A DNA stretch of 63,953 bases, the filler included, from Tortispora ganteri (Eukaryota): NCBI GenBank assembly GCA_003707115.1. It is 21 parts of 21 records of this genome, joined end to end, with 100 filler letters (N's around TTAATTAATTAA, not from the genome) between each part and the next. Parts side by side here need not be neighbours in the genome. Positions count along the whole stretch, not along the records: positions 23,190 to 26,258 come from PPNB01000105.1; positions 26,359 to 29,421 come from PPNB01000106.1; positions 29,522 to 32,475 come from PPNB01000109.1; positions 32,576 to 35,508 come from PPNB01000110.1; positions 35,609 to 38,502 come from PPNB01000111.1; positions 38,603 to 41,362 come from PPNB01000112.1; positions 41,463 to 44,308 come from PPNB01000113.1; positions 44,409 to 47,217 come from PPNB01000114.1; 13 more parts are not named here. One strand, 5' to 3'. The notes under the pieces were generated by a model that saw nothing but the letters and a program-made list of their open reading frames with translations, ran no database searches and was not told where the DNA came from. This document shows positions 23,828 to 52,955 of the stretch, piece after piece (within the stretch, counting starts at the first letter, position 1; each line of letters starts with the position of its first letter). The translations under genes and the position numbers were made by a program.

Positions 23828-24366
23828 TGTTGGAGAACTACCCGAATAGGGTAATGTAGCTTAGGGTTTTGAGCGCAATGAGAGAAACTACGTGTAGATA
23901 CGTGAAGTATTAGAAAGAGGTAAACCTTGATCAGTAATAAGATCTGGGCTAAAAACCTCTTGTCGTACAATATTCTTGATAATGTAACTGTCTTAACAAT
24001 GCAGATGTATTGCACTGCAGGGAAGCGGTCTGTGTATTATGCTTAGACTTTGGTCTGAAGCTTGTCACTATACGCTGGTTGACTGTTTAGAGACTGTTGT
24101 CTGTCTGCCTTGATCAGGGGCAGATGGACGTCTATTTATCATGTTCGTGGGATTTGTAAAATCACGTCACGTATGTTAATTACCTCGTTATTTGAGGTAT
24201 ATAAGCCCAATTGGGGTCTTCTATGCGTGATATGGAAGAGCTTTAGGAGAAAGCTACCGCATTTGTAATATGAGCGGTTTTATCTTTATTATGAAGGTTG
24301 GGAAAAAGAACTAGTACTAGGTTTTACGGTTTGGGAACTTGTGCCCTTGACAACCGTCTTCCAACA
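23828..24366 (-). repeat. 3' LTR, 539 bp, termini TGTTGG...CCAACA
   Basis: Inverted 6-bp termini; boundaries independently confirmed by filled/empty comparisons at 44110 and 52758. Confidence 0.95.
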
Positions 24367-24375
24367 CTCCCTCTC
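24367..24375 (-). promoter_or_regulatory. Polypurine tract (GAGAGGGAG) priming plus-strand synthesis
   Basis: Purine run immediately 5' of the LTR TG on the minus strand. Confidence 0.85.
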
Positions 24376-24498
24376 AAGACAACATTATTGCTTTTGATAA
24401 AATGAAAAACAACAGAATAATTTGTATTGAATGTACTTGAGAACTGAATAATAAAGGATCACTTTTCCTGGTTTTGCTCGATTCCATTACCACGTGAA

Positions 24499-26258
24499 TC
24501 ACTTGTTTGGTCGAGTAAGAAGTTTGCGCAATTGACCCAAATGTTCGTGTCGTGGCAGTGCTTTAGTCAATACGTCGGCGAGTTGGAGCTCCGATTGAAT
24601 GTAATGCAACGAGACGTCTTTTCGTTGTGCGAATTCTCGAACCGCGTAGACTTTCACATCAATGTGCTTCATCTTTGAGCGATTGAAGTCACCTTTAATA
24701 GCTGCAATGCAGGCTTGATTGTCTTCATAAAGTGCAACGCCTTCAGGATGATGTATCCCTATTTCAGATAGCTTTCGTTTAAGATAAACGGCTTCAATGG
24801 CGGCTGAAGATATAGCAATGTATTCTGCATGCGCTGTGGCAAGTGCAGTAACTTTTTGCTTGACTGAGGCCCAAGCTATGGGGCCGCCAGCTTGAAGTAA
24901 GACCCACCCTGTGGTAGATTTGCAATCCGTGCGATTTTGATAACTGGCATCAGCATATCCATGTATGTGCTCATCGGCTCCATACTTGTAGAGTATACCA
25001 TGGTCTTTTGTATGTTTAAGATATTGAAAGATTCGTTTGACTGCGTTCCAGTGTGCTTTGGTAGGACAAGTAGAGAAGGATGCAAGAGCATTTACAGAAA
25101 ATGCTATGTCAGGACGAGTGAGGTTTGTAAGAAACATCAGTGTCCCTATTGCACTTCTGAACTCATTGAAGTCCTCATTTGGTTGAGGCTTCGTAATAAT
25201 ATCCAGTCCAACAGCCATAGGAGAAGATTTTTCAGCAGCGTCAGTTAATTCGAATCTAGCCAGTGCTCGTTCTATGAAGAAACTTTGAGATATATGAATA
25301 CCGTCTTCGGTGTGTTTGACATTCAGGCTTAAGAACGAGGAGATTGGTTGTTGAATAGATGCCGTATACTTGGAGTTTAGTTGTTGATAGAAGTCAAGGA
25401 TTAAATCCTCAGATTCTGCAATGACAGCAATGTCGTCAACATAGATCACAAGCATAATATTCTTTTTATAAAAGAAGCAATCATCATAGGTGTTCTGAGT
25501 AAAACCCAGTTCTTTGATGGTTTCAACCAATGTTTCATTCCAGCGTCTTGGTGCCTGTTTGAGACCGTACAGAGTTTTCTTGAGTTTGCAGACTCTGTCT
25601 GTTCCGTCTTCGAACCCTTGAGGTTGTTTCATATAAACATTTTCTTCCAGTTTAGCATTGAGAAAGGCTGTCTCGACGTCAATTTGTGCTGTGTACCAAT
25701 TTCTGGAGGCAGCAATTGCAAGGAGCATCCGTACCATAGTATAGGAGGCCACGCTTGCATAAACTTCGTCAAAGTTCAGTCCTTTTATTTGCTGAAAACC
25801 TTTTGCAACGAGTCTAGCTTTGAATTTGTCAAAGACGCCTTCAGCTGTCTCTTTGACTCTGAAGACCCACATGTTATCAATTGGTTTGATGCCTGGAGGA
25901 CATTTGACCAGTTCCCATGTTTCTTTTGCGATCAGGGAAGTTAATTCGCGGTTGCATGCATCGTTCCATTTTTCTCTGAGTAAAGATTTCTGAGCTTGGA
26001 AGATGGACTTAGGGGGGTCTGTTACTTCAGGTAATAAGAGGTACTCATCGACTGCGACTTTGTTTGAGGCTGGATTTGAATTAATTTCTCCTTTCTGAGT
26101 GAAGCCAAGATTTATTGATTCGGTCGATATTTTGCCGATTTTGGGCAGTTTGGACTCGCAAATCATCAAAGCTCCTTTTTCATTGATTCTCCCTCGCTTT
26201 GGTGATGCGGGAGGAGATAAACCGGTGGTGGTGGGTGCAGGCAGAATTCGTATATGCT
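24499..26258 (-). CDS. Copia Pol polyprotein, C-terminal part (RT + RNase H), intact frame, 5'-partial
   Basis: KARLVAKGF.Q, IDVETAFLN, LYGLKQAPR.W, YVDD, TRPDIAF, YADA, YEDNQ, KHID, QLADVLTK; frame open to the contig end. Confidence 0.97.
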
Positions 26259-26358
26259 NNNNNNNNNNNNNNNNNNNNNNNNNNNNNNNNNNNNNNNNNN
26301 NNTTAATTAATTAANNNNNNNNNNNNNNNNNNNNNNNNNNNNNNNNNNNNNNNNNNNN

Positions 26359-28680
26359 TTGCCTACGTCGATCTACAGCAATTCAAGCGCCTTGCCGCCG
26401 ACTTCAGTCTATAGCAACTCGAGTGTCTTACCTACATCGATTTACAGCAACTCTAGCGCCTTGCCAACATCAGCTTACAGCAACTCAAGCGTCTTGCCAA
26501 CGTCGATCTACAGCAACTCGAGCACCTTGCCGACTTCAGTCTACAGCAACTCAAGCGTCTTGCCAACGTCGATCTACAGCAACTCAACTGCCTTGCCTAC
26601 ATCGATTTACAGCAATTCAAGCGCCTTGCCGCCGACTTCAGTCTATAGCAACTCGAGTGTCTTACCTACATCAGCTTACAGCAACTCTAGCGCCTTGCCA
26701 ACATCAGCTTACAGCAACTCAAGCGTCTTGCCAACGTCGATCTACAGCAACTCGAGCACCTTACCTACATCAGCTTACAGCAACTCGAGCGTCTTGCCTA
26801 CGTCGATCTACAGCAATTCAAGCGTCTTGCCAACGTCGATCTACAGCAACTCAAGCGTCTTGCCTACATCGATTTACAGCAATTCAAGCGCCTTGCCGAC
26901 TTCAATCTACAGCAACTCAAGCTCCTTGCCGACTTCAATCTATAGCAACTCAAGCGTCTTGCCAACGTCGATTTACAGTAATTCAAGTGCCTTGCCTACG
27001 TCGATTTACAGCAATTCAAGCGCTTTGCCTACGTCGATTTACAGCAATTCAAGTGCCTTGCCTACGTCGATCTACAGTAATTCAAGCGTCTTGCCAACGT
27101 CGATCTACAGCAACTCGAGTGCCTTGCCGACTTCAATCTATAGCAATTCAAGTGCCTTACCAACGTCGATTTACAGCAACTCAAGCGTCTTGCCGACTTC
27201 AGCTTTTAGCAACTCAAGTGCCTTGCCTACGTCGATTTACAGCAATTCAAGCGCCCTGCCTACTTCAATCTACAGTAATTCAAGTGCCTTGCCTACGTCG
27301 ATTTACAGCAATTCAAGCGCCCTGCCTACTTCAATCTACAGTAATTCAAGTGCCTTGCCTACTTCAATCTACAGCAATTCAAGTGCTTTACCGGTTACTT
27401 CGTCTGACGTCTCGAGCATTCTGTCTTCTTCATCGGTGTTAAGCAACTCGAGCGTTGTACCGACTTCAGCTTTTAGCAACTCAAGTGCCTTGCCTACGTC
27501 GATTTACAGCAATTCAAGTGCTTTACCGGTTACTTCGTCTGACGTCTCGAGCATTCTGTCTTCTTCATCGGTGTTAAGCAACTCGAGCGTTGTACCAACT
27601 TCTAGCTATAACAATTCAAGTGCTTTACCGGTTACTTCGTCTGACGTCTCGAGCATTCTATCTTCTTCATCGGTGTTAAGCAACTCGAGCGTTGTACCAA
27701 CTTCTAGCTATTACAATTCAAGTGCTTTACCGGTTACTTCGTCTGACGTCTCGAGCATTCTATCTTCTTCATCGGTGTTAAGCAACTCGAGCGTTGTACC
27801 AACTTCTAGCTATAGCAATTCAAGTGCTTTACCGGTTACTTCGTCTGACGTCTCGACCATTCTATCTTCTTCATCGGTGTTAAGCAACTCGAGCGTTGTA
27901 CCAACTTCTAGCTATAGCAATTCAAGTGCTTTACCGGTTTCTTCGTCTGACGTCTCGAGCATTCTGTCTTCTTCAACGGTGTTAAGCAACTCGAGCGTCT
28001 TGCCTACTTCAGCTTACAGCAACTCGAGTGCCTTGCCAACGTCGATTTACAGCAACTCAACTGCCTTGCCTACATCGATTTACAGCAACTCAACTGCCTT
28101 GCCTACATCGATTTACAGCAATTCAAGCGCCTTGCCGACTTCAATCTATAGCAACTCAAGCGTCTTGCCAACGTCGATTTACAGCAACTCAACTGCCTTG
28201 CCTACATCGATTTACAGCAACTCGAGTGCCTTGCCAACGTCGATTTACAGCAACTCAAGCGGCTTGCCGACTTCAATCTACAGCAACTCAAGCGGCTTGC
28301 CAACGTCGATCTACAGCAACTCAAGCGCCTTGCCTACGTCGATCTACAGCAATTCAAGCGCCTTGCCTACTTCAATCTATAGCAACTCAACTGCCTTGCC
28401 TACTTCAATTTACAGCAACTCGAGCGTCTTGCCGACTTCATTTTACAGCAACTCGAGCGTCTTGCCGACCTCATTTTACAGCAACTCGAGCTTCTTAGCG
28501 ACATCTACCTACAGCAACTCCAGTCTCTTGTCAACGTCGATTTACAGCAACTCGAGCATCTTACCAACTTTAATTTTTAGCAACTCGAGTGTATCGCCGA
28601 TATCCATTTTCAGCAATTTTAGTTCCTTACCAACATCTTTATCCTCAGTGTACAAGAACTCCAGTATCTTGTCAAGCTAA
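26359..28680 (+). CDS. Ser-rich mucin/flocculin-like stalk built of 11-aa (33-bp) and 34-aa (102-bp) repeats; 5'-partial, no GPI tail
   Basis: (LPTSIYSNSSA)n with an NSS/NST sequon in nearly every unit; six 102-bp units at about 27370-27990. Confidence 0.8.
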   Translation: MPTSIYSNSSALPPTSVYSNSSVLPTSIYSNSSALPTSAYSNSSVLPTSIYSNSSTLPTSVYSNSSVLPTSIYSNSTALPTSIYSNSSALPPTSVYSNSSVLPTSAYSNSSALPTSAYSNSSVLPTSIYSNSSTLPTSAYSNSSVLPTSIYSNSSVLPTSIYSNSSVLPTSIYSNSSALPTSIYSNSSSLPTSIYSNSSVLPTSIYSNSSALPTSIYSNSSALPTSIYSNSSALPTSIYSNSSVLPTSIYSNSSALPTSIYSNSSALPTSIYSNSSVLPTSAFSNSSALPTSIYSNSSALPTSIYSNSSALPTSIYSNSSALPTSIYSNSSALPTSIYSNSSALPVTSSDVSSILSSSSVLSNSSVVPTSAFSNSSALPTSIYSNSSALPVTSSDVSSILSSSSVLSNSSVVPTSSYNNSSALPVTSSDVSSILSSSSVLSNSSVVPTSSYYNSSALPVTSSDVSSILSSSSVLSNSSVVPTSSYSNSSALPVTSSDVSTILSSSSVLSNSSVVPTSSYSNSSALPVSSSDVSSILSSSTVLSNSSVLPTSAYSNSSALPTSIYSNSTALPTSIYSNSTALPTSIYSNSSALPTSIYSNSSVLPTSIYSNSTALPTSIYSNSSALPTSIYSNSSGLPTSIYSNSSGLPTSIYSNSSALPTSIYSNSSALPTSIYSNSTALPTSIYSNSSVLPTSFYSNSSVLPTSFYSNSSFLATSTYSNSSLLSTSIYSNSSILPTLIFSNSSVSPISIFSNFSSLPTSLSSVYKNSSILSS

Positions 28681-30143
28681 ATATTTTGGTCTACAGGAAT
28701 ACTAGTATCTTGGTAACATCGTCATCTTAGAACTCAAACGTTGTTGCATCTACTTCGACATTCAGCAACCTCTTTGTATCGCCCGACATCTATTTTAAGC
28801 AATTCTAGCTTAATGGCTGGAAAGAGCACAAGCTCAACTTGAGTTCTCTTTTGTAAGCACGCTGTCTCACCATAAGCCTGCAGACTTGCGGGCGGTCATT
28901 CGATATTACTGTACAATATTTTGCGAACAGCAAAAACGTTAGCATGCAATTTCAATGCCAGATGCTCGTTAGATGGTTGATTTTTTTTCTTCATTCTTTT
29001 CGTTCTTTTCACTCTTTTCTTTTTATCATTTTTTCTACTAATTTTTTTTTCCAACGAATCCGTGCCGATGCGCAATGATCGGAGGCAGTTTACTATTTCG
29101 ATATATTACCCGATATGGGATTTAAGTTTTTAGAGTTTTTTTTCTTCAGGCCCAATCTGTAATCTCTGCTCACAACCATTCCCTTCTTTTACCAACACTT
29201 TAGCGACCATCTACCCCGTAGTAAACGCAAATAAACAAGCCAATAAAAGGCAACATTTTAAATAGATCTGTTTTTGGTATTGTATGGTTGCCAAAGTGGT
29301 CTGAATTTACCCGCATTGGTCCCGATTTGTGCCCATATTCTTCGTTCAAAAAAACATTTAGACCTCCGAACAAACAGAAATAAGTCCGACCACCCAGAAA
29401 TAACAAAGAGCGTTGATTCGANNNNNNNNNNNNNNNNNNNNNNNNNNNNNNNNNNNNNNNNNNNNTTAATTAATTAANNNNNNNNNNNNNNNNNNNNNNN
29501 NNNNNNNNNNNNNNNNNNNNNTAGGGGGGGGAGGGGGCGCAAGAGAAGGGGCGGTGGGAGAGAGGCGTATAGCTGCCGAACAAGGACCCCTACTGGTCAA
29601 GGGAATTTCATTTTCATTCAGTTAATAATGTTTTATCACTGATTAAAGAGTACACACATTCTATGCAATTAGGTCAAATACATAAGTATATATTAATTAG
29701 ACGCAATATTGGCTCATTAACGGAGTGACATACTTTTTTCATTATATTTAATACACATTAGTTTCCACCGGTGTTACGCTTTAAAGTTAAAGTTTGACAT
29801 AACTTAATTGATCCTTACGATATCATCGTCTCACATAAGCATCACCAATAATTCTTAGATACACGAAAGGGTTCACGATAAAGGGTTCAAAACTAATAAT
29901 ATAGATACCCTTGCACTTATTTCTGTTATTTACAGTCAGATATATAAGCGCACTCTCGCTCTTATTCTCAAATATTCTAACTTATCCTTACATCTTCACA
30001 CATTCGAAACATACCTGAATCACTCTAATTTGCACGCTAGGACATAGGCAGCGAAGAACAAGGACATTATAACCTCAAATTAGCACAAAAAGACCAGCAA
30101 ACTTTTGGAATACTTGTTAAAACTTTCCCGAGACAATCCCGCC

Positions 30144-31679
30144 ATGGCTAAATGCAAAATCTATCACTCTCATGAACAAGATAAAGATCTTTCCGTGTTA
30201 GTAGATCATTTTTATAGCCATGAAAACAAACAATTATTATCCAGTAAACCTCATATTATGTCGCCAAGTACGTCATACACGTCGAATGCGACAACTTCTC
30301 AAGGATCATCGTACAGTTTTCCAGAAAGCGCCCGTACACAGCTCATCGAGCAGCTGGAAGCGACCAATTTATCAACACAGTCTCTGAATAGCATAATCGG
30401 ATTCACTTTGAGCACAAGGCAAAATGAAGATGAACAACTTAAATACGATTTGCTCAAAACTGCAGTTCACAGTAATAACTCAAAGTTGGAAATGGTCCAG
30501 GATGAATGGAAGAGCTATTTTGAGTCATTCAACGATGAATTGAATAACACTTTTGGCACAGGAGTGACAGATTACTCCTCCATATTAGTAAACCCCGGGT
30601 TTTCACAGCCGATTGTTCAGATTCCTGAACAGGTACCGGTATTCAATGAGAACGTTTGGACTTCACACTCAAAGCCAGCCTCTCCGTCCGTTAGTCCTCG
30701 CACAATTGAACAAAAAAACAACCAAAAGAAAAGTACATTAACATCTTCATCAAGAAAGAATATGAAAGTTTCTAAGAAAAAACCAGTTCCTAACCGAACA
30801 TTCAGAAAAAGATCAAATTCAACTCCTGCAGTTATGATGCAATCAAAAGGAATAGAGCCAAATGTAAGAGTCGCAAAACCTACACACAACCGGATCGCAA
30901 GAATACAGAGGAGGAATGCATACAATCCGATGATTATTGAACATGAAAAAATGCGCAGTGTAGACAAGGTATACGCACATGAAGCGAGGAGCGCATATGA
31001 AGCAAGACTTGCATTAGAAGAGGATCGTCTTTATGAACAGTCCCGTATCTATGAAGAGAAAAGAGCATTAGAGATGGAATTGAAAATGTCATATGACAGA
31101 AGGAATGTCCAAGAAATGACAATGAGACAAACATATAATGACATTCGCGGTCAAAATGACATTCATATAAAAGAAGAGATGTTGATAAGACAACAGCAAC
31201 AGCAGCAACAACATCATCAGCAGCAACTCCAACTCCAACGTCAACGTCAAATTCATCAACATCAGCAGCAACAACGATTTCGGTCACAACATCGACAGCC
31301 GCATGATCCTGTATCAATAGCACCCCATAATAGTCAGCAATGGCTAATTAGAAACATTCCAGCAGAACAATGTGGAAGACTGAATGACGGTATTTCTGAT
31401 GCATTTCAACCCGCAACCAAACTGGTACAGAGGTCTGATAATCTCGCAAATGCTAAATTTAGAGAGAACTGCAATAAGCTACCTATATCTTCACAAGGAA
31501 ATACACATTTTCCAGTACAGCAAGTGAGGCAGACAGAATGGATTGAGGATTCATACGATGGGACATTATTCGCAGGTCTTTTACTTGAAGAATGCCAGAA
31601 ACATCAGGTAGGTATGAGAAAGAGCCAGGAGCATTCAGAAGGTGACCAAATCGCTGCTCAAATATCAATTGCCGAGTGA
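30144..31679 (+). CDS. Hypothetical Gln-rich, probably nuclear protein
   Basis: About 510-aa ORF with basic patch, coiled coil and polyQ; TATA-like TATATAAG at 29941. Confidence 0.7.
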   Translation: MAKCKIYHSHEQDKDLSVLVDHFYSHENKQLLSSKPHIMSPSTSYTSNATTSQGSSYSFPESARTQLIEQLEATNLSTQSLNSIIGFTLSTRQNEDEQLKYDLLKTAVHSNNSKLEMVQDEWKSYFESFNDELNNTFGTGVTDYSSILVNPGFSQPIVQIPEQVPVFNENVWTSHSKPASPSVSPRTIEQKNNQKKSTLTSSSRKNMKVSKKKPVPNRTFRKRSNSTPAVMMQSKGIEPNVRVAKPTHNRIARIQRRNAYNPMIIEHEKMRSVDKVYAHEARSAYEARLALEEDRLYEQSRIYEEKRALEMELKMSYDRRNVQEMTMRQTYNDIRGQNDIHIKEEMLIRQQQQQQQHHQQQLQLQRQRQIHQHQQQQRFRSQHRQPHDPVSIAPHNSQQWLIRNIPAEQCGRLNDGISDAFQPATKLVQRSDNLANAKFRENCNKLPISSQGNTHFPVQQVRQTEWIEDSYDGTLFAGLLLEECQKHQVGMRKSQEHSEGDQIAAQISIAE

Positions 31680-32475
31680 GTTTTTTGCTGCGAAAGAATA
31701 ATATCAGATGATTGTATGAGGCGTAATTCAGCTCTAGACATCCGGGCAACTTTAGCATCAATAGGATCAGGGATAGGATCTTTTGGCAGAGGAGGCATCA
31801 TACTCAGTGTTCGATCCAGAATTGCTTTTAGCGTGCTGATGGCCAACTCACATACTTCTTTCAAAGAACCGGAGTTGCTGTTTGGATCATGACACATGTT
31901 GTAGAATCCGTCAGTAAGTAAAGCAGCTAGCAAGTCGCCAGTACCAGAAAAGTAAGTATCATAAAAGCTTAAAGGTATAATAAAGGATTTACCATTACTT
32001 GACATTGCAGCTAAAAAAAAGTAAAAGTCATTATCGGGGACATTAGGCCGAATGTCGATGGAAGTTATCACGATATTAGGCGTACCATAAGCTTTACGTA
32101 TACCATGTAGGACTTTAAGAGCCGAACCAACATCTGTAATGCTAATTGTGCGGTCCAAAAGTACTTCAGCCTCCAGCTGATTCGGCACGATCAGAGATGC
32201 GTGGCTAATAAGCTGCTTATAGACAGGAATTGTTGATTCGGCGACGTACAGATTACCGTTATCGCCCATGACTGGATCGACTACTAAGCAGATTTCTGGT
32301 TTGAGTTGTTTGAGGGATTGGACAAGTTCTAGAACTACAACAAGAGCTTCGCTTCCTGGCATATAACCAGTCAATATAGCCTCATAGGAGTTTAGATGAC
32401 TTGTTTGTAGGGCTTCAAGGATACTACGGATCAGATCTGGCGATGCCTTTTCACCTGCGAACCTTCCGTAACCGG
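31658..32475 (-). CDS. BUD16: Pyridoxal kinase (Bud16/Bud17 family), 5'-partial
   Basis: GYGRFAG, LTGYMP, VDPVMGDNG.LYV, PNQLEAE.L, FSGTGDL, ELRLIQS. Confidence 0.85.
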
Positions 32476-32575
32476 NNNNNNNNNNNNNNNNNNNNNNNNN
32501 NNNNNNNNNNNNNNNNNNNTTAATTAATTAANNNNNNNNNNNNNNNNNNNNNNNNNNNNNNNNNNNNNNNNNNNN

Positions 32576-33866: not shown

Positions 33867-33928
33867 ATTAAGTGTGCCACCAAACGTACCGGTATGTCAA
33901 TTTGAATATCATAGTTCCCTCTATAACT

Positions 33929-35508: not shown

Positions 35509-36657
35509 NNNNNNNNNNNNNNNNNNNNNNNNNNNNNNNNNNNNNNNNNNNNTTAATTAATTAANNNNNNNNNNNNNNNNNNNNNNNNNNNNNNNNNNNN
35601 NNNNNNNNAATGTATATCGCAACTGCCAAATAATTAGCCCAGTACTGCGAGAAATTTCATTTTAGATGGCAATTTTTCAATCTTAGACTTGATACTTGAC
35701 ACTTTCCAAAAAAGAATATGAACCGTATGTCCTAGAACTATCACTTAAATGCTTGCTTAAACGTAGTGATGCAGGAGCTTTAACTAGGCGTTAAAGATGA
35801 TGGAGGCGTATTTAATTCATAGATTCACCTAATTAATACGTAATCATAATGACTTAAGGGCAAAAGATATAGTGTCTGCTCTTCGAATCGCTAAATCAAA
35901 TGCATGACCGCAGTCGTTGATAATGAATGATCATAGTTATAGATATTTCACCGACCACGCATAAAGATTTAATAAAAAAGCTTACAACTTCAAGCCTAAC
36001 TCCTAAGCATGCAGAATCAATTTGCTGATCGCTTGCTATATATACCTTATTATATCGAACAACGTACTTAGATCGACTATGAGAATGCCTGAATCTATGT
36101 ACTTTAATTAGCAGATGATTATCCAGAACCTCAGGTAGTACATTAGCCAAATTGATATTCTATTTAGGTATAAGCAAGCATTCGTTAATGAATATTGACC
36201 AATGGATTAATTGTTAAATTCGACCATCACCGTGGATAACTTATGCGGTTCCCATTTAAAGGAGGTCCTTGGATTACCAAAATAGCATAAAGTAGAGTTG
36301 TATTATCTCACTACGTGCGCACATTTTTTGATAATTTATGGGCAAACCTAGTTAATATGCACTACTTATCCACTATTCACAATAGCAGTAATTCACCCTA
36401 CAGATTATTTTGTCAGAATTTGGTAGTCCTTCATCGTAGCACATCACTATGTGTTTGCTCTGGCAGCCGTACCACAAAGTCGAAACTCTTCTACGTGGGT
36501 CGTATCGCGTATTAGTAAATTCTGGTATTTCGCGAAAATCTTGAACTTTCTAAAGTGGTCATTATAGCGGCCCAAACGCCACCAAAATACTCAAATATCG
36601 TTCCCTTATGCATATAATACCTTTAAGAAGTATTTCTGCAGCTGGTGACAGTTTACT

Positions 36658-36691
36658 GTGAAAACCGTGAAAACCGTGAAAACCGTGAAAA
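36658..36691. repeat. (GTGAAAACC)x3.8 short tandem repeat
   Basis: Perfect 9-bp repeats decaying into CGAAAA units. Confidence 0.85.
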
Positions 36692-37526
36692 TCTCGAAAA
36701 TCGCAAAAAACACTAAGGCTATAGCCTTGGTAAATTTTCAGATTTCACGAAAATCTTGATTTTTTAGAAATTGCTCTTAAAGCGTCTAAAACGTCAGTAA
36801 ATACTCAAATAACCGAACATTATGCTTAGAATACCTTCAGAGCCTCTTCTAGGCCTTTCACGCGGCTCATGATAGTTTGCCCTTAAAATTGAGCAAATCG
36901 CAATACTCGTAAATGTCACCAAGACCACTGCATCGACTTTGAGAAACACGCTATCTAGGGCAAAGAAACTACATTGCTTTCTAGTCTTGAGGATAGGAAG
37001 ATGCACTTCCCCGTGGGTCTTGTAGCAATTCCTGTACTATTTGACCGTCGATGGTCTTGTCGGTTGGCTTCTGATGAATCTCTGAGATTCTGGCCGGTTG
37101 GACTATGATAGCACTGGCATGCATGTACACGCGATCGATGACTTGACACCACAGGCTGTTGTGTCAAGAGCCCAATGGTTAATCTTATTATTCCTGGACG
37201 CTGTTAACCTTCGATTGAGCGCATCCTGTGTAAGTTGTTAGCGTGCGTTGCTCAATGTATACGGTCGTCGACGAGAGATGGAGTAAGCCTAGTGAAGGAG
37301 AGCAAACAGCGCCCCCTATTGGCTATAAATATCACGTGCAAACACCTATACCCTTGAATAAAGTTTTTTTAGAACTGAAGAAAGATGTCGAGCAATGCAT
37401 CCTATTGGCTATATATCAGGTGATATACCCTATACCCTGAATTAAAGTTGCAGAAAATCGCTGAAAGGCCAAAATAACCCTGAACCCTTCCCGAGAAAAC
37501 GGGAAACCCTAACCTGATTTTCGAAG

Positions 37527-38272
37527 CTTCTGATTGGCTACCCGTAAACTTTAACCTTATTTGTGCATCAGAGCTTCTGATTGGTCAGTTTCAAACTTTA
37601 ACCTTATTTTGTACCGTGGCTTCTGATTGGTCGATCTAAAAGCTTAACCTTCGATCTAAAACTTTAACCTTCGATCGGATCGATCGCCTCTTATTGGTCG
37701 ATCTAAAAGCTTAACCTTCGATCTAAAACTTTAACCTTCGATCGGATCGATCGCCTCTGATTGGTCGATCTAAAAGCTTAACCTTCAATCTAAAACTTTA
37801 ACCTTCGATCGGATCGATCGCTTCTGATTGGTCGATTTAAAAGCTTAACCTTCGATCTAAAACTTTAACCTTCGATCGGATCGATCGCTTCTGATTGGTC
37901 GATCTAAAAGCTTAACCTTCAATCTAAAACTTTAACCTTCGATCGGATCGATCGCCTCTTATTGGTCGATCTAAAAGCTTAACCTTCGATCTAAAACTTT
38001 AACCTTCGATCGGATCGATTACCTCTGATTGGTGATCTAAAAGCTTAACTTTCGATCGGATTGATCGCCTCTTATTGGTCGATCCAAAAGCTTAACTTTC
38101 GATCGAATCGATCGTCTCTGATTGGTTCATCCAGACCAAACTTTAATTGTAAAATAAAGCTTCTTATTGGCTGATTTCTTACCCTAACCTGATTATGCAA
38201 TTAGGCCTTCTGATTGGTCAATATTGTTTCAAACTCTAATTTTTTGAATAAACTGTGCAGCTAATTGATTGG
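37527..38272. repeat. Non-coding tandem array: 46-47-bp units expanded to six 67-bp units, each with a CCAAT box
   Basis: ATTGG at 37533, 37580, 37626, 37693, 37760, 37827, 37894, 37961, 38028, 38074, 38121, 38166, 38213, 38268; the 67-mer is the 47-mer plus a duplicated 20-bp TCGATCTAAAA..TTAACCT subunit. Confidence 0.95.
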
Positions 38273-39150
38273 CTAATATAAGGTTTATACTGCCTAATCG
38301 GGATATATTGCCTCGGCTCGAAACCTTAATCGCTAAAGATCGTCAACCATTATAGTAATATATCTCTGTAATACTGTATGGTTTCACTGCGCACTGAAGA
38401 TACAGTAGTTATAGCATAAAATTAATGTCTTCGGCTAAAGTATTCGCAATACTCCATTTGCCGTAGCCTGAAGATCTATAATATCTTCTGCTTTGTCTCA
38501 TTNNNNNNNNNNNNNNNNNNNNNNNNNNNNNNNNNNNNNNNNNNNNTTAATTAATTAANNNNNNNNNNNNNNNNNNNNNNNNNNNNNNNNNNNNNNNNNN
38601 NNCGGTCAAGCAGATAATAAGGTTCTTAAATTTTGCTTTCGGTAGATTCTAGAGCGCAACGAAGTTGGTGAACCTTGATATTGGCATATCGCACTATAAA
38701 AAGATTGAGGATTTCATTAACTGAAGGTTAAATGAATGATCTAATTCTTGAACGTGCATAAAACCTACATACTTATTAAGTAGAGCTTAGTTTGATCTTT
38801 ACTTAAGTTATGGAAAAACTCCTCCTTACTTGCCAACGGCCAGTGCACATCATTGACTGATCAATACCTTCCACGGAATAACAATCTACAATGGATTTGC
38901 TTTTTCAGAATAGAACCAGTGTCGACAACGCTGCAAGTTGCTGGATGGTACATGCACATTGTTTCCAGTTACATTCTGCGGCATATCGAGCGCACGAGTT
39001 TGAGGCTGAAGTGTTTTAGCCTCAATGCTAATAACTCTAAATACGCAGCAACCAATCAAGGTTAACTTTAAACTTAGGCATTGTGACAGGATTCGGCGAT
39101 TAGAAGAATGTCAATAAGGCTATGCCGAATAAGACAACGATAAGTTTTCA

Positions 39151-41362
39151 TTGAAGACGGCAACAAGTTTATTATGGTTTTTGCTAGCAGCTATAATAAG
39201 CGCAAGCGCGGCTTCTTGCCATCAATCGCTCTCTATGGTACAGACAATATACAGTACTATCGTGGAAACGAACACGCTCATTTGCAGCCCACCTGTTGAA
39301 ACTTCTACTGTCTACGGACGTTTGTATACTTCTGAGTCTGCTGCTAAACGTGTGACTGTCTACGACGACCAATGCGCGCCTGGTGTGTCTACAGTTTCAG
39401 GCTGGTACTGCAACCAATGCACACCCGCTACGGTGACCTATGTACCTAGTCCGCCGGTCGTCAAAGGCGACTGTACCTATGTCTGGTCATACTACGAGTC
39501 CGTGTCTATGTCCGTGTCGTTTGACGTGCACGTCTCTATTGAGATTCCAGTCATTATCACGGAGACTATAGCACCTACGCCTCCGCCTACTCACCCCGCT
39601 ACAGCTACCGCGACTGTCCCTACGACTGTGCCCACTACTGTGCCTGCAGACGCTTGCTCAACCGCACCTGCCTACAGCGCAGGCCAAGCATTTGCCGCTA
39701 TATACGAGGGGGCAGTAGACTTGTCGTCGAGCGATATCCAGAACGGTGAATACAGGAATTACCAGCGAGACAATGTGGCCGCTACAGTCTCGTCAAACTC
39801 TATATCGGCATCAGTATCCGAACAGGGCTATGTCGAGTACCTTTTCTACCTTGAACCATCAGCCGACATTGCGTTTGTAGATGTACAGGCACAGGATCCT
39901 AGTAACTTTGCAGATACTTACGCGTACCTCTTTGATGGCGAATTGGCTATGCGGTGCGATAACATGGACCTTATTGGTTCTTCTGGCTCTTCTGCCACTG
40001 CCCCTCTGGACAGTTCGAATGGGTTCAAAGCAAGTTTTCCGGTCGACTTTGCTGGTGGATACTTGTACCCAGTCCGTATAGTCATTCCTGTTGCGGGCTT
40101 TGGATCGGCGGGTCAATTCAAACGTCAGGCCGGAGTCTCTGTGATCTTGAGTGTCATGTTTACTACCATCAGCGGCGAGACAATAGCTATTTCAGTATAT
40201 GGCTCTACAAGTGGATCACCTGAGCCGGTTAATCCTATTCCTTCAGTTAGTTCAGCCTTATCGATTATATCGGAATCTAGGGTTTTTCCGGAGTCTTCTG
40301 TTGTTTCTAGCTTTCCAGTTGTTTCTAGCTCTCCAATTGCACCTAGCTCAGTCGTTGCTAGCTCATCAGTTGCTGCTAGCTCATCAGTTGCTGCTAGCTC
40401 ATCAGTTGCTGCTAGCTCATCAGTTGCTGCTAGCTCATTAGTTGTTTCTAGCTCATCAGTTGCTGCTAGCTCATTAGTTGTTTCTAGCTCTTCAATTGCA
40501 CCTAGCTCAGTTGCCTCAGGATCTGCTATTGTTTCCAGTTCTTTAGTTGCTGCTAGCTCAATTGCATCTAGATCCTCTATCGCTTCCGGGTCGTCTGCAT
40601 CTTTCGACTCTAGCATCGGCTCGGGATCTTCAGCTTCCCCCAGCTCTTCTACCGCATCGGGCTCGAGTCTCGCCTCAAGCTCTAGCGTGACTTCCGTTTC
40701 AACTACATTATATTCTCCAGCAATTCCATCTGCCTCTAGCACTGCACTGAAATCCAGTTTTGGACGGAGCTCATATGGAAATTCTAGCACTAGTCAACTC
40801 TCTTTTGCCTCAAGTGCAGCAGCCGGATCCTCAGCTGGCTCTAGCTCCTCAGTTGCATCAGGATCCTCAGCTGCACCCGGCTCTAGTGTTTTATCAGGAT
40901 CTTCGACTGTATCAGGATCTTCGGCTGCACCCGGCTCTCGTGTTTTATCAGGATCTTCGGCTGCGTCAGGATCCTCAGCTGCACCCAGCTCCAGTGTTGT
41001 ATCAGGATCTTCAGCTGCGTCAGGATCCTCAGCTGTACCCAGCTCTAGTGTTTTATCAGGATCTTCGGCTGCACCCAGCTCTGGTGTTGTATCAGGATCT
41101 TCGGCTGCGTCAGGATCTTCAGCTGCACCCGGCTCTAGTGTTTTATCAGGATCTTCGGCTGCGTCAGGATTTTCGGCTGCTTCAGGATCTTCAGCTGCAT
41201 CCAGCTCTAGTGTTATATCAGGATCTTCGGCTGTACCCGGCTCTAGTGTTGTACCAGGCTCATCAGTAGGCCCCGGATCTTCGAGTTTGACTGCAAGTTC
41301 TAGTGTTACATCCGGCTCAGTTATTTCTACTGCTTCAAGTAATGCACTAAGTTCTAGTATTG
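39151..41362 (+). CDS. Secreted adhesin-like protein: signal peptide, Cys-rich N-domain, PA14/GLEYA-like domain, Ser/Ala/Gly stalk; 3'-partial, start codon problematic
   Basis: Hydrophobic leader LLWFLLAAIISASAA, LYPVRIVI strand, FKR Kex2-like site, 18-bp SSSVAA and SGSSAA repeats. Confidence 0.8.
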
Positions 41363-44109: not shown

Positions 44110-44308
44110 TGTTGGAAGACGGTTGTCAAGGGCACAAGTCCCAAACCGTAAAATCTAGTACTAGTGCTTATTTTCCCAATCTCCTTTAAATAAAGTTGAA
44201 CCCCGCTGAACAAAAGCAGTATGCTCCTGGGCTCTTCCGTATCAATCAGAAAGAACACGAATAGTTACTTTCTATTTAACTAATGGTGGGGTAATTGATC
44301 TTAATCAA
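44110..44308 (+). mobile_element. Ty1/copia LTR, 5' (U3) end, diverged subfamily; insertion absent from the allele at 12847/12848
   Basis: TGTTGGAAGACGGTTGTCAAGGGCACAAG matches the reverse complement of the 24366 end; begins exactly where identity with contig 10198-13397 stops. Confidence 0.93.
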
Positions 44309-44408
44309 NNNNNNNNNNNNNNNNNNNNNNNNNNNNNNNNNNNNNNNNNNNNTTAATTAATTAANNNNNNNNNNNNNNNNNNNNNNNNNNNNNNNNNNNN
44401 NNNNNNNN

Positions 44409-44914: not shown

Positions 44915-45280
44915 TTATTTAGCAATTGGTTTTGTTTTATACTGTGTACGTTTTGGTTTTTTTTTTGGTTTTTTCTCAGTATGCTTTATTACTTAGTTAT
45001 ACAAGTTAAAAGCACGGTATTGCATACATTCATTTCCAAAGATATTATCTACGCATTCTAGAACTTTGCGAATTTTTACTTGTTTCATATGCTATTTTAT
45101 TCACTATGCGGCGATTATTAGCTGCATTGACTAGCAAAATTTATCACATATGCATGTCTCCTCTTCTTTCCCCGTTGTCTTACCTGTTGTCAACAGCCTC
45201 CTAACCGCACCTACCCCTTTTGCTTACACCGATCACTATCCACCCCGGAATCTCACTTTAACTTAGATAAATGATTTATA

Positions 45281-47217
45281 ATGTCTTCATACAACTCCTC
45301 GTATAGTCGTTCAAATAAGCGACCAGCTACTAGTAATCTCAATGCTTCTATAATTGAAGAAGAAGCTGTTGAGTCTGGAGAGGATACCGCCCAACCAACT
45401 ACTGTTACTGTCCCTATATGGTTTCACGAATCACATATATGTCAATACCCTGCTGTAATTGATTTATCGCTATTTCCAGATATTAAAGAGAACTTTGATA
45501 TTATTGAATTAGTTCCTGGATCAGAGCGGCAACGGCGACTTACGAGATCCTCACGCGAAGGCTCTGTGACGAGATCTTCGCATGCCTCCAGCGAGCGGGA
45601 GACATTCATTAAATCAGCAAATATTAATTCTCACAATATAAATCATGCAGCTTCAAATTCTGGTAGTTTCTATTTTGTTGCAAGAGCATTACCGCCTGAG
45701 GTTGGCAAAGGTCAGAACCTCAAACTGTCCGTTCTTCGTGAAGGCCTGCAACATTCCCTGTCTCTGTTCCCACGGGCAATGGTCAATTTACGCCGAGTTG
45801 AACACCGTGAAAGTATTATTGCTGATCTTATAGAAATTGGAATTAAAGATATTAACCTTTCCAGGGCTGATCAATGGCATATCTCTGCCAGTCTCAGAAA
45901 TCAATGTGTTTACTCCTCAGAAAGGATCACGTTCTTGAAGGCTATACGTGTTTCTGTAAATTCGATATTCAAACGAGGTCGCAAACAATTCTCGGCACTT
46001 ATCGGACCGAACACAAAAATTGTATACCGCACAGAATCCGCTAAATATACAATACTTCTACAGATGTCCCGTGAAATGTGGTACTTTGACGAACATGGAG
46101 AGATCCTGTTCCATAAAGTCATCAACTCGCTTCTTCCTGAGCTAATATCCAGATGGAATACGGCCGGCGTATCGCATTTTGTTTCAATAATCTTGTTCAC
46201 TTCGGTTGATTTATCAAATGGAACTACTCCTTATCGACCAGGAAAACGACCAAAGAAAACTCTCGATTATTACAAGGTAATTGTAAATAACGTTGCATTA
46301 ACGAGATGGAGCGATATCATGCAAACACTACGAAAGGAATTTTGTGCCTTCTTAGAGAATGTACTCCAGCAACCTGATATTGCCAATTCAGATGATACTT
46401 CTTCAGAAACACCTGAACGCATAATCGGCTCTTTATTACCCGCTATTCAAGGAAATATACTCGAAGCTATTAACATGTCTTTGACACAAGCTGACAGAGA
46501 TACTACTGATACTACTTTTAAGCACACAGGTATACAAACAGTGATTGTTACTCCAAGTGCAGGTCTCTTTGACGTTGACTACGATCTGCTTTACCGCACA
46601 GGCGAAATCTTGTTAGAAGAAGGAACCGGTATTGACTTTGTTTCATTGCAGAATATGCCTTTATATGTTTCACCTGCACTGAGATTTCTTGAAACAGAAT
46701 CTAATGACCTCATATATTGTCTGCCACACTGGGCGCAGATATCTTTTTGGCCAAATTTCGAGAGGGCTTATACATTTACATCTTGGAAACCTAGCTGTCA
46801 AATGTACGAGATTCAAATGACTGGAGTAATGGAAGACGAGCTTAGTTCTATTAGTATAGAGCCTTTGTTGCCTCCTCCAGCTGAAAAGTCTGAACATCAG
46901 TGGATGACTGAATATGATGAATCCATATTTCTTCCTGTTCATCCAGATTCTGATTTCCCTGATTTAATGAAACAATTTGGATTTGGAAAGGAATCAGTAA
47001 GCCCTGATGATTCGAGGTACGGTCATACAAGTAGCGAGCTATCTGGCTCAGTAAAGAATTCTCTTGATAGAGGTTTTGAGAATAGTTTCCCGGATAGAAT
47101 GACTCCGACAACTGACATTGGATCTTCTGATAAAGATTCAAAGGCTCCAAAACACACGGTAGTGGGATTTAAAATCTCCTCGACATCTTCTGAAAAGACC
47201 TCCAACACCGATTCAAC
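45281..47217 (+). CDS. IML1: IML1, second allele, 3'-partial
   Basis: Near-identical to 7705-9637 with scattered SNPs. Confidence 0.95.
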
Positions 47218-47317
47218 NNNNNNNNNNNNNNNNNNNNNNNNNNNNNNNNNNNNNNNNNNNNTTAATTAATTAANNNNNNNNNNNNNNNNNNNNNNNNNNN
47301 NNNNNNNNNNNNNNNNN

Positions 47318-49694
47318 TGCTTTGTCGTCTACTCCAAGCAGTCTATCTTTTGCTTTGTCGTCTACTCCAAGCAGTCTATCTTTTGCTTTGTCGTCTACTC
47401 CAAGCAGTCTATCTTCTGCTTTGTCGTCTACTCCAAGCAGTCTATCTTTTGCTTTGTCGTCTACTCCAAGCAGTCTATCTTCTGCTTTGTCGTCTACTCC
47501 AAGCAGTCTATCTTCTGCTTTGTCGTCTACTCCAAGCAGTCTATCTTCTGCTTTGTCGTCTACTCCAAGCACTTTATCTTCCGCTTTGTCTGCTGCTCGT
47601 TTATCAAATCAGTCATCTGCCTTTTTCGCTCCCACTTCATTGACTTCTGTTCATTCATCGAAACATTATTCGTCTCTCGCAAATACTTCTTCTACAAACT
47701 CTCTAGATCTTTCTGCTTCATCATTTATTGAAACTCTGAACTCCACTACTAGTCTGGTTTCTTTGCTTCCTACCCCCAGCACTAACGTTGTATCCACGAT
47801 CCATTCACAATCAGCGAGTTACAACACTAGCGAAAACATTCCTTTGGACATTTCATCTGCCGCCATACCATCTTTTGCTGCTCTGTCTTCAACTGACACT
47901 CTAAGCATTTTATCGTCTACTTTATATACCTCAGTTTCATCTACTTCGACATCTACTGGAAAAGAAGTGGTACCTACTCCTCTTTGCGATTGTAATGCAA
48001 CAAGCAGTGTCGATGTTGTAGCGGCTAAAGAAGTGGTTGGCTTAACTTACGACGTCACTTGGCTTTTGACGCTCTCAGAAGAGTATAATCCGATGGATGT
48101 TTGCCAGGTTGATTTGCTTGAACCAGTTACCGAAGTGTTGTTTGCCTTTGAAACTACAGGAATAGCTGATATTGCTGATTGTAATATCACTAAACGTGTT
48201 GAGTGCGTTGAGAAAGAAGGTGTTATATATGCGCCTAAGATATCTGTTCGGTATACGTTCTTCAGCGGTATAGTGATAGATTTGACTTCTGGATGTGAAG
48301 GCGGAAGCTATGCTGGTCCTTCCTACTGTTGGAAAACAGACGAACAAGACACAGATACTCTTTCTTTAGAGCTTTTATCTACTACAGTGCAAACGGATAC
48401 AGCTACTTATAGTTCTTACAGTTCTTATAGGTTTAAGACAGATGAAAATGTTCAAAGTAAACGCGATACTTCTTCTGAACACGCTGCATCATTTGTTACG
48501 AATACTATTGCTACTACTGCTAGCTCTTTTGGTCCACTGATTACACATACTGTCATTGAATCATTGCCTGTTACTATTGCTACAAAATGCGTTTCGGAAA
48601 GCTCTATGTCATCTGACCGTTGGATATATGTATGTCCTACTGACTGCTACATTCCTACTACACTACTCTGCGATTGCTCTGCCAGTCATGATACTACATT
48701 GAATGTGCATACGTCAACAGCGACGACGGAAAAAGTCATCTCTACTAAGGCTACTTTGACTGGAATTAGTACTGATGTACCTGTGACAACGCATACTATT
48801 ACCACTAAGCTACCTCCGACAATCGCTACTAGTTGTGTATACGAAAGCTCTATATCAACAGACCGCTGGATATATATTTGCCCCACTGATTGTTATATTC
48901 CTACCACGCTGATTTGTGACTGTTCTGATACGGAGACTGAATTGCCCCCGACTGAACTGCATTCGGCTACTTACGTATCTTCCGTCATTTTGACAACCGA
49001 GAGCACGAAACATGAAGAAACAGTCCCGGTCACTTCCAAGACAACGACAAGCCAACGACACACTACTCCAACGGTTATAACGACTGCCAAAGGTGTTAGT
49101 TCTGTGCCTTTGAAGACATCCACGGTTCATGTGCACAGCACCGAAACAGTTACTACTCATACTGTGACGACGAAATTGCCTCCCAGTATAGCCACTAGCT
49201 GTGTAGATGAAACTTCCATTACTTCAGACATATGGGTTTATGTTTGTCCGACAGACTGCTATATCCCTTCTACGTTAATTTGTGACTATTGCACCTCATT
49301 TGATACGGAAACTTCACCGACAAATCATGGGAAAACTAAAACCGAAACAACCGCGGTTATGAGTACTACTAAATGCGAAGATTGTACAACGGTTTCGGAC
49401 ATTACGCCCATACCCGTGACAGTCACAAGCATGCACGCAGAAGATTCAATGGGCAAGAGCTACTCAGATACAACTACAGTCACATTGACCAGATTTTTGA
49501 CTCACGGAGTTTCTTCACAAGTTACATTGACACAGAAGGTGGCGACCTCGACTACTACAGGATTTTACTTCTATAATACTGCCAATAGCAGTGATACAGT
49601 CACAGTGCCGTATTTCGGTGCAGGATGTGCAACCATTCCGAACATTTTCATTATATCGCTTTGCGGAATTATATCGTCTCTCATTTTATTCTAA
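47318..49694 (+). CDS. GPI-anchored mucin/adhesin-like cell-wall protein, 5'-partial
   Basis: 33-bp SSTPSSLSSAL repeats, a Cys-containing globular segment, three WIYxCPTDCYIP repeats, hydrophobic C-terminal GPI signal. Confidence 0.85.
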
Positions 49695-49775
49695 TATATG
49701 TGCATTGAATTATAAATATTATATTCTATTCGATACTATACCTGTAAAGAAAGCCAATTGCTCTAGTAGTAGAAA

Positions 49776-50089
49776 TTACTTCTTTCCCTGAGCAGCGACG
49801 GCCGCAGCACCAGCAGCAGCGGCTTCTGGGTCAAGATAGTAAGCAGGCTTGACAGGTTTAAAGCTGTCGTCAAGCTCATAAACCAAGGGAATACCTGTAG
49901 GAATATTAAGCTTAGATATTTCTTCGTCAGAAATGCCATCGAGGTGTTTGACCAAAGCACGAAGAGAGTTTCCATGAGCAGCCACCATGACAGTTTTGCC
50001 GGCTTTTAAATCAGGAATAATTTCGGCTTGCCAATAAGGAAGAAGACGATCTATGACAAGTTTTAGAGACTCAGTCTTGGGAAGCTCGG
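49776..50089 (-). CDS. GPM1: Phosphoglycerate mutase, C-terminal part
   Basis: [51 protein letters not shown]. Confidence 0.96.
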
Positions 50090-50189
50090 NNNNNNNNNNN
50101 NNNNNNNNNNNNNNNNNNNNNNNNNNNNNNNNNTTAATTAATTAANNNNNNNNNNNNNNNNNNNNNNNNNNNNNNNNNNNNNNNNNNNN

Positions 50190-50680
50190 GTCATGGTCTT
50201 GTCCATTGCGATTTCAATGAGTTTAATATCATGATCAGAAACGGTATAGACGAGAACAATATTCCTCCTGAAGACCAGTTTATTGTCATAGATTTCCCTC
50301 AATGTGTTTCTATTAATCACTCAGACGCTGAACGCTATTTTGATCGTGACGTTGCATCCATCCGAAGATTCTTTCAGTCGCGACTAGGGTTCCATTCTGA
50401 ATCGTATCCGCGATTCACTGAGGATGTCGTCCGAAAAGATGACATTGACGTCAGAGTTGAAGCTTCAGGCTACAGCAAAAAATCTGTCAAGGAATTTGAA
50501 CAAGCAATGGCTTCTTTGCGCGAAAAAACTGATGCTGATTATGAGTGCGAAGAATCATATGAAGATGAAAATCACGATTTCAACGACTCTGAGAATGACA
50601 ATGATTACGAATCCGATAATGACGAACTTGATACCGAATCTACTGCATCTAATGTTTCTGAATCTAATGTTATCTCATGA
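50190..50680 (+). CDS. RIO2: Rio2 3' part, second allele
   Basis: Near-identical to 19990-20480. Confidence 0.95.
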
Positions 50681-50697
50681 CCAGTTAATATTCATTA

Positions 50698-52491
50698 TCA
50701 TTGATGTACCCTGTGCGCTAAAACATCCTGTAGTTCGTTTAACGTAGCATTCATATCCGCAGGCCCAGATGTCGGCGTCACTGAGTGCACTCTCACAGTT
50801 CGCTTCACGGGCTTTATCATTCCAATTTGTGGTCCGCTAACTGCTCTGGAAGAACCTAATGTCTTCTCAATTGATGACCAAGATTGCTCAAATTGTGTTT
50901 GATCTACGCCTCGAGTGTTCCTGACACTATCTCCATCGTCATTGAATGTTCCAATGAAAGGTGAGAATGTTTCTGAGCCTGTCACAGAGGTCGAGGACAT
51001 CAAACTTGGCACTTCATAGTCTTCCGACTGACAATACGCATTACCACTTTCAGAAACAGAGCCATGGTCTGCATCTTTCGTTTGGACAAACCTCTGGAGT
51101 TGGTCTCGTCCTTTCCTCCACTCAAGCAACAAGGACTCAATATCCGTGGATATCATATCATAGTGTGCCAACAATTTCTCGGCTTTCTCTAAAGTATCTT
51201 CATTACCCATTAAGCTTTGTAGTGTTTCTTCACTCGCTAGACGTAATCTCGCCTCGATGCTATTCAATCCTCCAGAAACTGCATTCATGGCGGCTGTATG
51301 TTTAAGCAGCATATCAGATTTAGGCTTGCTTGCAGATTTCAGAGACTCTTGGATAATTTTCTGCAGATTATTGTCATAGTTGTAAGCGTCAAACATTGAA
51401 TTAACTGCCTGGCCAATAAGATTAGACACTTTATCTGTTTCTTTAGTGACGGAAACCCAGATTTCACGATCTTCGTTTTTGCCAGTAGCCTTTAAGGCTA
51501 GAAGTTCGCATATAAAAAGCTTTCTAGCAATAAATAACTTAATGAATCGCTTTTTTAGAGAAGATATAGAGGTAGATGTGTGTTCAGTTTCGGGATCGCC
51601 AATTGATAGCGCAGTGAGCTCACGTTCATCGACCTTATAGAGACTGGTGAGTGTTTTCAAAGAAAGAGGGTCACAGAAAGGTCGGATATACTCGCAGCTT
51701 CTGCATATTTGCGGAAAAACAAGCTTTAATGTAGCATCTATTGAATCCCTCAGATAGCTACAGTGTGCGTTCCGATCGATTCTGTCAATAGGCGGAGCGC
51801 GATAGCCGGGAACAGCGCTTTTGTACCCTTTTGAGTAGAGTTCTGCTTCTTGCACAATGCGTATTGACTTTGTTATCGAATAATCAAGTATATTAGAGTT
51901 ATGTACAAGTCGAGATGCAGCCTGAGCGGCATAAGTGTATAGCTGCCGCAGCTCACGTCTGCGAGAGTGAGCGTAAAAGGAGATAGCAACGCAGAGTGAC
52001 ACTACTAATAATGCGAGTTTCTTATCGTTAGATTGAAGCTGGTCGGTTTTTGAGGCCCAAGTTATAACAACACCTATTAATATTATGTAACCTGAATGGC
52101 GCAGTGTGAATGTGATTGTCTGATAACGAGGAGAAAAAAGGGGATCATGGGACTTGAATAGAGAAGAAGCGGCCCAAGTTATTCTGTCATCGAGGAGTCT
52201 GCTTCCGATAAGAGAATATCGAAACCGATCTGTCAGTTCCTGAGCTTCTGATGCGCTTATCTCGCGTGATATTGCCTTACGAAGAAGAGTTGTGAATCGA
52301 TCTTTTTTTAGCGTGGCTGGATCTGAAAGTGTTAAAGGTCTTAGAGACTTGCTGGTAGGAGCGAAGTTCTTTACGGGGACGAAGTCATCCTTAAATCTTA
52401 TTGATGCTGGTTCTATTCCCCAATTCTCAATACCGCTGTCTCGTACATAATCCGCCAATGGAGAATCGTCAAGGAAAACGGGATTTTCCAT
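50698..52491 (-). CDS. Vezatin-like gene, second allele
   Basis: Two amino-acid differences from 20498-22291. Confidence 0.7.
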   Translation of the reverse strand: MENPVFLDDSPLADYVRDSGIENWGIEPASIRFKDDFVPVKNFAPTSKSLRPLTLSDPATLKKDRFTTLLRKAISREISASEAQELTDRFRYSLIGSRLLDDRITWAASSLFKSHDPLFSPRYQTITFTLRHSGYIILIGVVITWASKTDQLQSNDKKLALLVVSLCVAISFYAHSRRRELRQLYTYAAQAASRLVHNSNILDYSITKSIRIVQEAELYSKGYKSAVPGYRAPPIDRIDRNAHCSYLRDSIDATLKLVFPQICRSCEYIRPFCDPLSLKTLTSLYKVDERELTALSIGDPETEHTSTSISSLKKRFIKLFIARKLFICELLALKATGKNEDREIWVSVTKETDKVSNLIGQAVNSMFDAYNYDNNLQKIIQESLKSASKPKSDMLLKHTAAMNAVSGGLNSIEARLRLASEETLQSLMGNEDTLEKAEKLLAHYDMISTDIESLLLEWRKGRDQLQRFVQTKDADHGSVSESGNAYCQSEDYEVPSLMSSTSVTGSETFSPFIGTFNDDGDSVRNTRGVDQTQFEQSWSSIEKTLGSSRAVSGPQIGMIKPVKRTVRVHSVTPTSGPADMNATLNELQDVLAHRVHQ

Positions 52492-52757
52492 TGTGGTTGT
52501 AGTGGTGGTTGTTTAGTGTAAACAAGCCAGAACCGCGGTTAAAGTCCCAAAAAAGTAGCTTAGAAAACGAAATCATGTGGGGAGTAACCTTGTCAGCTAA
52601 ACACCATTCACGACGCGTACTGCGCAGTTGTACTTATCAAATTAATACGATTTATCTCTGTTAAAATAATATAAGACTGAAGAACAATGATCAGAACAAT
52701 ATATCACCTTGAACATATACCCCAAGCTGCGGTAACGCAAATGTGACGAACGCGCAC

Positions 52758-52955
52758 TGTTGGAGAACTACCCGAATAGGGTAATGTAGCTTAGGGTTTT
52801 GAGCGCAATGAGAGAAACTACGTGTAGATACGTGAAGTATTAGAAAGAGGTAAACCTTGATCAGTAATAAGATCTGGGCTAAAAACCTCTTGTCGTACAA
52901 TATTCTTGATAATGTAACTGACTTAACAATGCAGATGTATTGCACTGCAGGGAAG
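52758..52955 (-). mobile_element. Ty1/copia LTR, 3' (U5) end; insertion absent from the allele at 22556/22557
   Basis: 197/198 identical to 23828-24025; starts exactly where identity with contig 19990-23089 stops. Confidence 0.96.

Follow-up and report, generated by a model that had tools for sequence, protein, structure and literature searches.

The window (the whole stretch of DNA analysed, 63,953 nt) consists of 21 contigs of a budding yeast joined end to end, and in three of them the outer end of a long terminal repeat (LTR) of a Ty1/copia-type retrotransposon adjoins DNA that lies 5' of genes that RNA polymerase II (Pol II) transcribes. The junctions are found at 23828, upstream of VMA1 (site 1), at 44110, between a gene of the PDI family and TOM22 (site 2), and at 52758, between the vezatin gene and ETT1/Nro1 (site 3); all three (3 of 3) stand in 5' spacers, at distances of 75–265 nt upstream of the start codons of Pol II genes. 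These junctions are true insertions, at least two of which are present on one haplotype only, with the empty alleles present as well, and the element was recently active in a heterozygous budding yeast of compact genome. The contigs are 2.5–3.3 kb each and are sorted by falling length; positions are counted along the joined stretch, linkers of 100 nt included (N runs around TTAATTAATTAA, e.g., 3317–3416 and 23090–23189). Contigs that adjoin in the window do not adjoin in the genome, and any adjacency read through a linker is spurious.

The element in contig 8 is oriented in the same way as VMA1. Its pol fragment (24502–26256, minus strand; linker, copia-type reverse transcriptase (RT) and RNase H region) is an open reading frame (ORF) of 585 codons that runs off the end of the contig; the stop codon is located at 24499–24501, 132 nt before the LTR (start 24366). 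The RVT_2 profile (PF07727) was matched in this ORF at residues 112–347 (E 1.8e-67; 241 of 244 profile positions), and in the domain search of the ORF no rve or other integrase domain was found in the 238 residues that follow the RT; RT/RNase H is the last pol domain before the 3' LTR. A polypurine tract, GAGAGGGAG (24367–24375, minus strand), was read from the sequence directly 5' of the 3' LTR. The 3' LTR itself (variant A; 23828–24366, minus strand) is 539 bp long with TGTTGG...CCAACA termini; its outer edge is 23828, where the TGTTGG corresponds, on the opposite strand, to the last bases of this 3' LTR. The inner boundary was placed at 24366 because the LTR start at 44110 matches 24366–24228, and the outer boundary at 23828 because 23828–24025 matches 52758–52955 (198 of 199 positions identical). 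By its copia RT, the lack of an integrase after the RT, the TG...CA LTR and the polypurine tract, the element is a Ty1/copia-type (Pseudoviridae) LTR retrotransposon. Its RT relatives, among the matches listed in two protein searches, are 30–43% identical and mostly of plant or unnamed origin.

At site 1 the 5' end of VMA1 is present (23191–23615, minus strand). The first exon is the ATG codon alone (23615–23613); it is followed by an intron of 98 nt (23612–23515; GTAAGT...TAG) and by exon 2, which extends from 23514 to the contig end and was aligned to residues 2–111 of the yeast V-ATPase subunit A (E 1.9e-53) with a match to ATP-synt_ab_N. Counted from the A of the VMA1 start codon (23615), the first LTR base is reached 213 bp upstream.

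Sites 2 and 3 are each represented by a filled and an empty allele. At site 2 the last 199 nt of contig 14 (44110–44308, plus strand) are the 5' end of an LTR, designated variant B; the empty allele, contig 4, has a divergent spacer of 188 bp (12735–12922) that extends from the ATG of the PDI-family gene (12734, minus strand) to the ATG of TOM22 (12923, plus strand). The two contigs are in register up to 44109 and 12847, respectively, after which contig 14 continues with TGTTGG... and contig 4 with TOM22; the break falls between 12847 and 12848, 113 nt from the ATG of the PDI-family gene and 75 nt from that of TOM22. At site 3 the last 199 nt of contig 17 (52758–52955, minus strand) are the outer end of an LTR of variant A; the empty allele, contig 7, has a divergent spacer of 362 bp (22292–22653) between the ATG of the vezatin gene (22291, minus strand) and the ATG of ETT1/Nro1 (22654, plus strand). 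Contig 17 tracks contig 7 up to 52757 and 22556, respectively, and then passes into the LTR; the break falls between 22556 and 22557, with 265 nt separating it from the ATG of the vezatin gene and 97 nt from that of ETT1/Nro1. The neighbours of both sites were identified by domain searches (thioredoxin/ERp29-type PDI, Tom22, Vezatin, Nro1/ETT1). Contigs 14 and 17 each contain exactly 199 nt of LTR before they stop, and it is therefore the alleles free of the LTR (contigs 4 and 7) that place sites 2 and 3 inside divergent promoters. Of each of the three insertions, one junction is present in the window. An assembly artefact was considered for the junctions at 44110 and 52758 and rejected: the tails of 199 nt are the regular overlap of the assembly, and the alleles diverge exactly at TGTTGG.

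Self-comparison of the window gave four pairs of allelic contigs that are ~99.2–99.3% identical (3/15, 4/14, 7/17 and 16/19), with exact terminal overlaps of 199 nt between allelic contigs and likewise between contig 6 and contigs 7 and 17. Such overlaps and alleles look like the product of graph-type assembly applied to a heterozygous diploid or to two close strains. A full-length protein of the PDI family shares 90% identity with one from Tortispora caseinolytica, and the next matches reach 38% at most; judged by this likeness, the host is a Tortispora-related, early-branching budding yeast. One portion of the RIO2 gene lies in contig 6 (minus strand) and the other in contigs 7/17, the two being connected by the exact overlap of 199 nt (16754–16952, 19990–20188 and 50190–50388); this makes contig 6 a real neighbour, in the genome, of the vezatin/ETT1 locus.

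All three junctions had been proposed in an earlier sequence-only reading of the window, together with their distance from VMA1 and divergent promoters of ~190 bp (PDI/TOM22) and ~360 bp (vezatin/ETT1); the first position was borne out by the outer end of the LTR and the alignment of exon 2, and the other two by the empty alleles. The same reading had assigned the three insertions to one Ty1/copia family, which holds in part. The copia RT and the near-identity of the LTRs at sites 1 and 3 agree with it, and the same LTR end (variant A) at two different flanks marks these two as distinct insertions; variant B at site 2 shows only 80% identity to variant A (24366–24228), over ~135 of the 199 bases of B that are visible, with no match beyond. 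By this comparison the LTR at site 2 is a second variant and not plainly a member of one family, and at least two well-separated LTR variants are present. No further copies of either variant were found in the window by a low-stringency search.

As to the surroundings of the sites, ARAGORN gave no transfer RNA (tRNA) in the whole 64-kb window, and no Rfam family was matched in it at gathering scores; at E ≤ 1 over contigs 4–8, a single Rfam match, to a long non-coding RNA and of chance level, was obtained. Telomere-like arrays were not found in contigs 4, 7 or 8. The visible flanks at site 2 are 2650 nt (left) and 550 nt (right), and those at site 3 are ~5.5 kb (left, with contig 6 joined via the overlap of 199 nt) and 533 nt (right). 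The visible flanks contain no RNA polymerase III (Pol III) gene within ~1 kb, the Ty1-type distance, and the genes around the sites are housekeeping genes (VMA1, PDI, TOM22, RIO2). The earlier statement that neither a tRNA gene nor a telomere lies near the sites thus agrees with these searches, as far as the short contigs reach.

Three public sequencing runs (X1–X3), taken as Logan contigs, were compared with contig 8; no RNA data set was among the runs listed for this sequence. Runs X1 and X2 (organism A) gave near-identical figures, may be one data set and were not counted as independent support. In both, the flank contig stops exactly at 23827, rather than ~30 nt inside the LTR, and shows 3 differences from the window allele; together these features hint at, but do not prove, an empty allele at VMA1 as well. 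Loose ends at 23828, 23847, 24323 and 24366 in X1/X2 represent further LTR copies with other flanks, at both edges of the LTR; the short flanks read from the loose ends of the runs gave no match in the window. Several LTR copies in the runs (seen at 24139–24366, inside the LTR) skip 89–412 nt of the central part, which points to length variants. The summed word depth was ~1000–1200 at the LTR ends vs ~80–90 in the flank, an excess of ~12–13-fold that is not a copy number and gives only a hint that the family is sampled sparsely by the three sites. In run X3 (a second organism, B) pieces of the element were found at 90–95% likeness, and a contig of 52.9 kb covers 23190–23809 at ~92% (570 of 620 letters alike), the alignment stopping 19 nt before the junction. 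The family is common to related species, and the length of its LTR is variable.

Apart from the element, two kinds of repetitive DNA were observed in the window. Contig 12 (35609–38502, 2.9 kb) has no ORF of at least 90 codons and no Rfam match; it contains a tandem repeat of 67 bp (6.5 copies, 95% matches; 37622–38057) with related arrays of 46–47 bp adjoining. Several other contigs carry long Ser/Thr-rich ORFs built of tandem units of 33, 18 or 12 nt (26359–28677; 53508–55787, minus strand; 47319–49691; 55892–58210; 39133–41361; 58709–61357, minus strand; 2626–3315), which fall into paralogous groups at 77–88% identity (contig 9 with 18; contigs 1 and 13 with 20) and, from their composition, look like repeat-rich cell-surface proteins.

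The reading preferred here, to which about an even chance is given, is a real but non-exclusive preference of the element for open DNA upstream of Pol II genes, sharpened by the loss of insertions that disrupt ORFs. The integration complex would prefer, non-exclusively, nucleosome-poor, open DNA 5' of Pol II genes, and ORF-disrupting insertions would then be lost, which would sharpen the pattern. Such behaviour has been reported for Tca2 and, as a secondary bias, for Ty5 (PMC7175516). A promoter preference is plausible but unproven, and any integration preference, as well as its mechanism, we infer, whereas the class of the element, the anatomy of its LTR, the junction positions, the empty alleles and the lack of Pol III genes in the visible flanks are shown. 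Spacer statistics were obtained from crude ORF calls on 16 non-redundant contigs (left out were contig 8, which carries the element, and the allelic contigs 14, 15, 17 and 19). ORFs made up ~72% of the sequence; the bounded spacers amounted to 2650 bp divergent (6), 3183 bp tandem (4) and 683 bp convergent (6; one false interval of contig 8 was dropped), and 90% of the fully bounded intergenic DNA is promoter-bearing. Convergent gene pairs are ~0–80 bp apart, one of them overlapping by 22 bp (20481–20497, 31658–31679, 33867–33928, 49695–49775 and 62263–62296). Spacers that hold nothing but terminators are, in this genome, very short. On the null figures, which are rough (short, repeat-rich contigs; introns ignored; both target spacers included), uniform unselected integration would give three of three non-ORF sites with p ~0.02, the one comparison in which the result is unusual and which counts for a preference, and, once ORF avoidance is granted, three of three in promoter-bearing spacers with p ~0.72 and both resolved sites divergent with p ~0.17. 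The last two values weigh against a preference, as do several features of the material: three visible sites only, which involve two LTR variants; a single visible flank of 638 nt at site 1, with the far side of the element unseen; right-hand flanks of only 533–550 bp, just beyond which a Pol III gene is possible; and the end of contig 8 at 26258, inside pol, which places the integrase outside the window. The sequence-only reading had itself cautioned that ORF avoidance in a compact genome enriches intergenic hits, and the caution was well placed, three of three being the expected outcome.

The simplest form of that objection, near-random insertion with survival only in non-coding DNA, where tiny convergent spacers leave the survivors beside promoters, is considered somewhat unlikely. 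It accounts for the promoter-bearing share of the intergenic DNA and for the high p value under ORF avoidance; against it, at least two of the insertions are on one haplotype, with empty alleles present, and recessive hits in ORFs would be partly sheltered in a diploid, the one point that speaks for a real bias of integration rather than for selection by itself. Moreover, some targeting is shown by all LTR elements that have been studied well in yeasts with compact genomes (PMC7175516 and PMC5911963). A stronger form of targeting, in which the integrase binds a promoter-bound host factor by a tethering of the Tf1 kind that evolved independently of the gypsy-type Tf1, is decidedly improbable: the location of 3/3 sites within 265 nt of start codons, the very short divergent promoters (188 and 362 bp) at two of them and the absence of a visible Pol III or telomere context speak in its favour, whereas the element is copia and not gypsy, the position of the integrase outside the window leaves no targeting domain to inspect, and a sample of three is without power. 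Of the earlier proposal of a copia lineage with Tf1-like promoter targeting, the closeness of all sites to start codons stands; the targeting itself is plausible but, with three sites and two LTR variants, not separable from survival in non-coding DNA. A Ty1- or Ty5-like target, with a Pol III gene or silent chromatin lying a little beyond the ends of the short contigs, is very improbable; the short right-hand flanks and the unseen far side of the element in contig 8 leave room for it, and it is opposed by the lack of a tRNA or other Rfam RNA in the 64-kb window, by the housekeeping nature of the flanking genes (VMA1, PDI, TOM22, RIO2) and by the lack of telomere-like arrays.

As it stands, the analysis documents a recently mobile copia family. 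A search of the available literature on Tortispora retrotransposons gave no description of these elements, which seem undescribed there. Heterozygous insertion alleles near the starts of housekeeping genes could alter the expression of these genes. If a real promoter preference were shown, a family from so compact a genome (Logan contigs of ~9.5 Mb in all) would be of help in asking how Ty1/copia elements evolved their choice of sites.

Among the known systems, Ty1, Ty2 and Ty4 of Saccharomyces cerevisiae insert within ~1 kb upstream of Pol III genes, as stated in the available text of PMC5911963. Like the element described here, they are LTR elements of copia type in a yeast whose genome is compact; they differ in that no Pol III gene is visible at the sites of the present element. 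The LTRs of Ty1, Ty2 and Ty4 have a terminus of the TGTTGG type, as found here. The plant element ATCOPIA93 and related copia elements show H2A.Z-guided integration towards genes (bioRxiv 10.1101/447870, accessible part); they are of the same Ty1/copia type, their integration towards genes is guided by chromatin, and they are plant elements that insert within genes. Insertions of Tf1 of Schizosaccharomyces pombe fall in Pol II promoters (PMC5741268 and PMC3553992). Tf1 is a Ty3/gypsy element, whereas the present element has a copia RT without an integrase after the RT and is not a member of the Tf1 type; any likeness would be functional at most.

Closer parallels are found among the copia elements of budding yeasts. 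Ty5 of Saccharomyces, also of copia type, has a secondary bias upstream of ORFs with a peak at ~100 bp (available part of PMC7175516), which resembles the upstream positions found here; its primary target is Sir-dependent silent chromatin, whereas the present sites flank housekeeping genes and show no telomere-like repeats. Tca2 (pCal), a Ty1/copia element of Candida albicans, is reported in the same accessible text (PMC7175516) to insert upstream of genes. Both Tca2 and the present element are budding-yeast copia elements, and all three junctions, at no more than 265 nt, fall inside the 300-bp upstream-of-ATG limit taken for a Tca2-like preference, with n = 3; the LTR of Tca2 is 280 bp long (PMC7175516, same part) vs 539 bp here, the host is here Tortispora-like, and the two are likened by behaviour and not by sequence. 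The landing of copia elements upstream of Pol II genes is, on the strength of these accessible passages, already known behaviour, and the premise of novelty in the sequence-only reading, which had named the gypsy-type Tf1 as the classic targeter of Pol II promoters, was overstated, in view of the Tca2 precedent and the secondary bias of Ty5. Should a real promoter preference be shown, the present family would join Tca2 as the second copia case of this kind in budding yeasts. That an early-branching, Tortispora-like lineage has a copia integrase actively directed to Pol II promoters is regarded as unlikely; if true, it would suggest, together with Tca2, that integration close to promoters came first among the copia elements of yeasts, with tethering to Pol III and to Sir4 as later specialisations.

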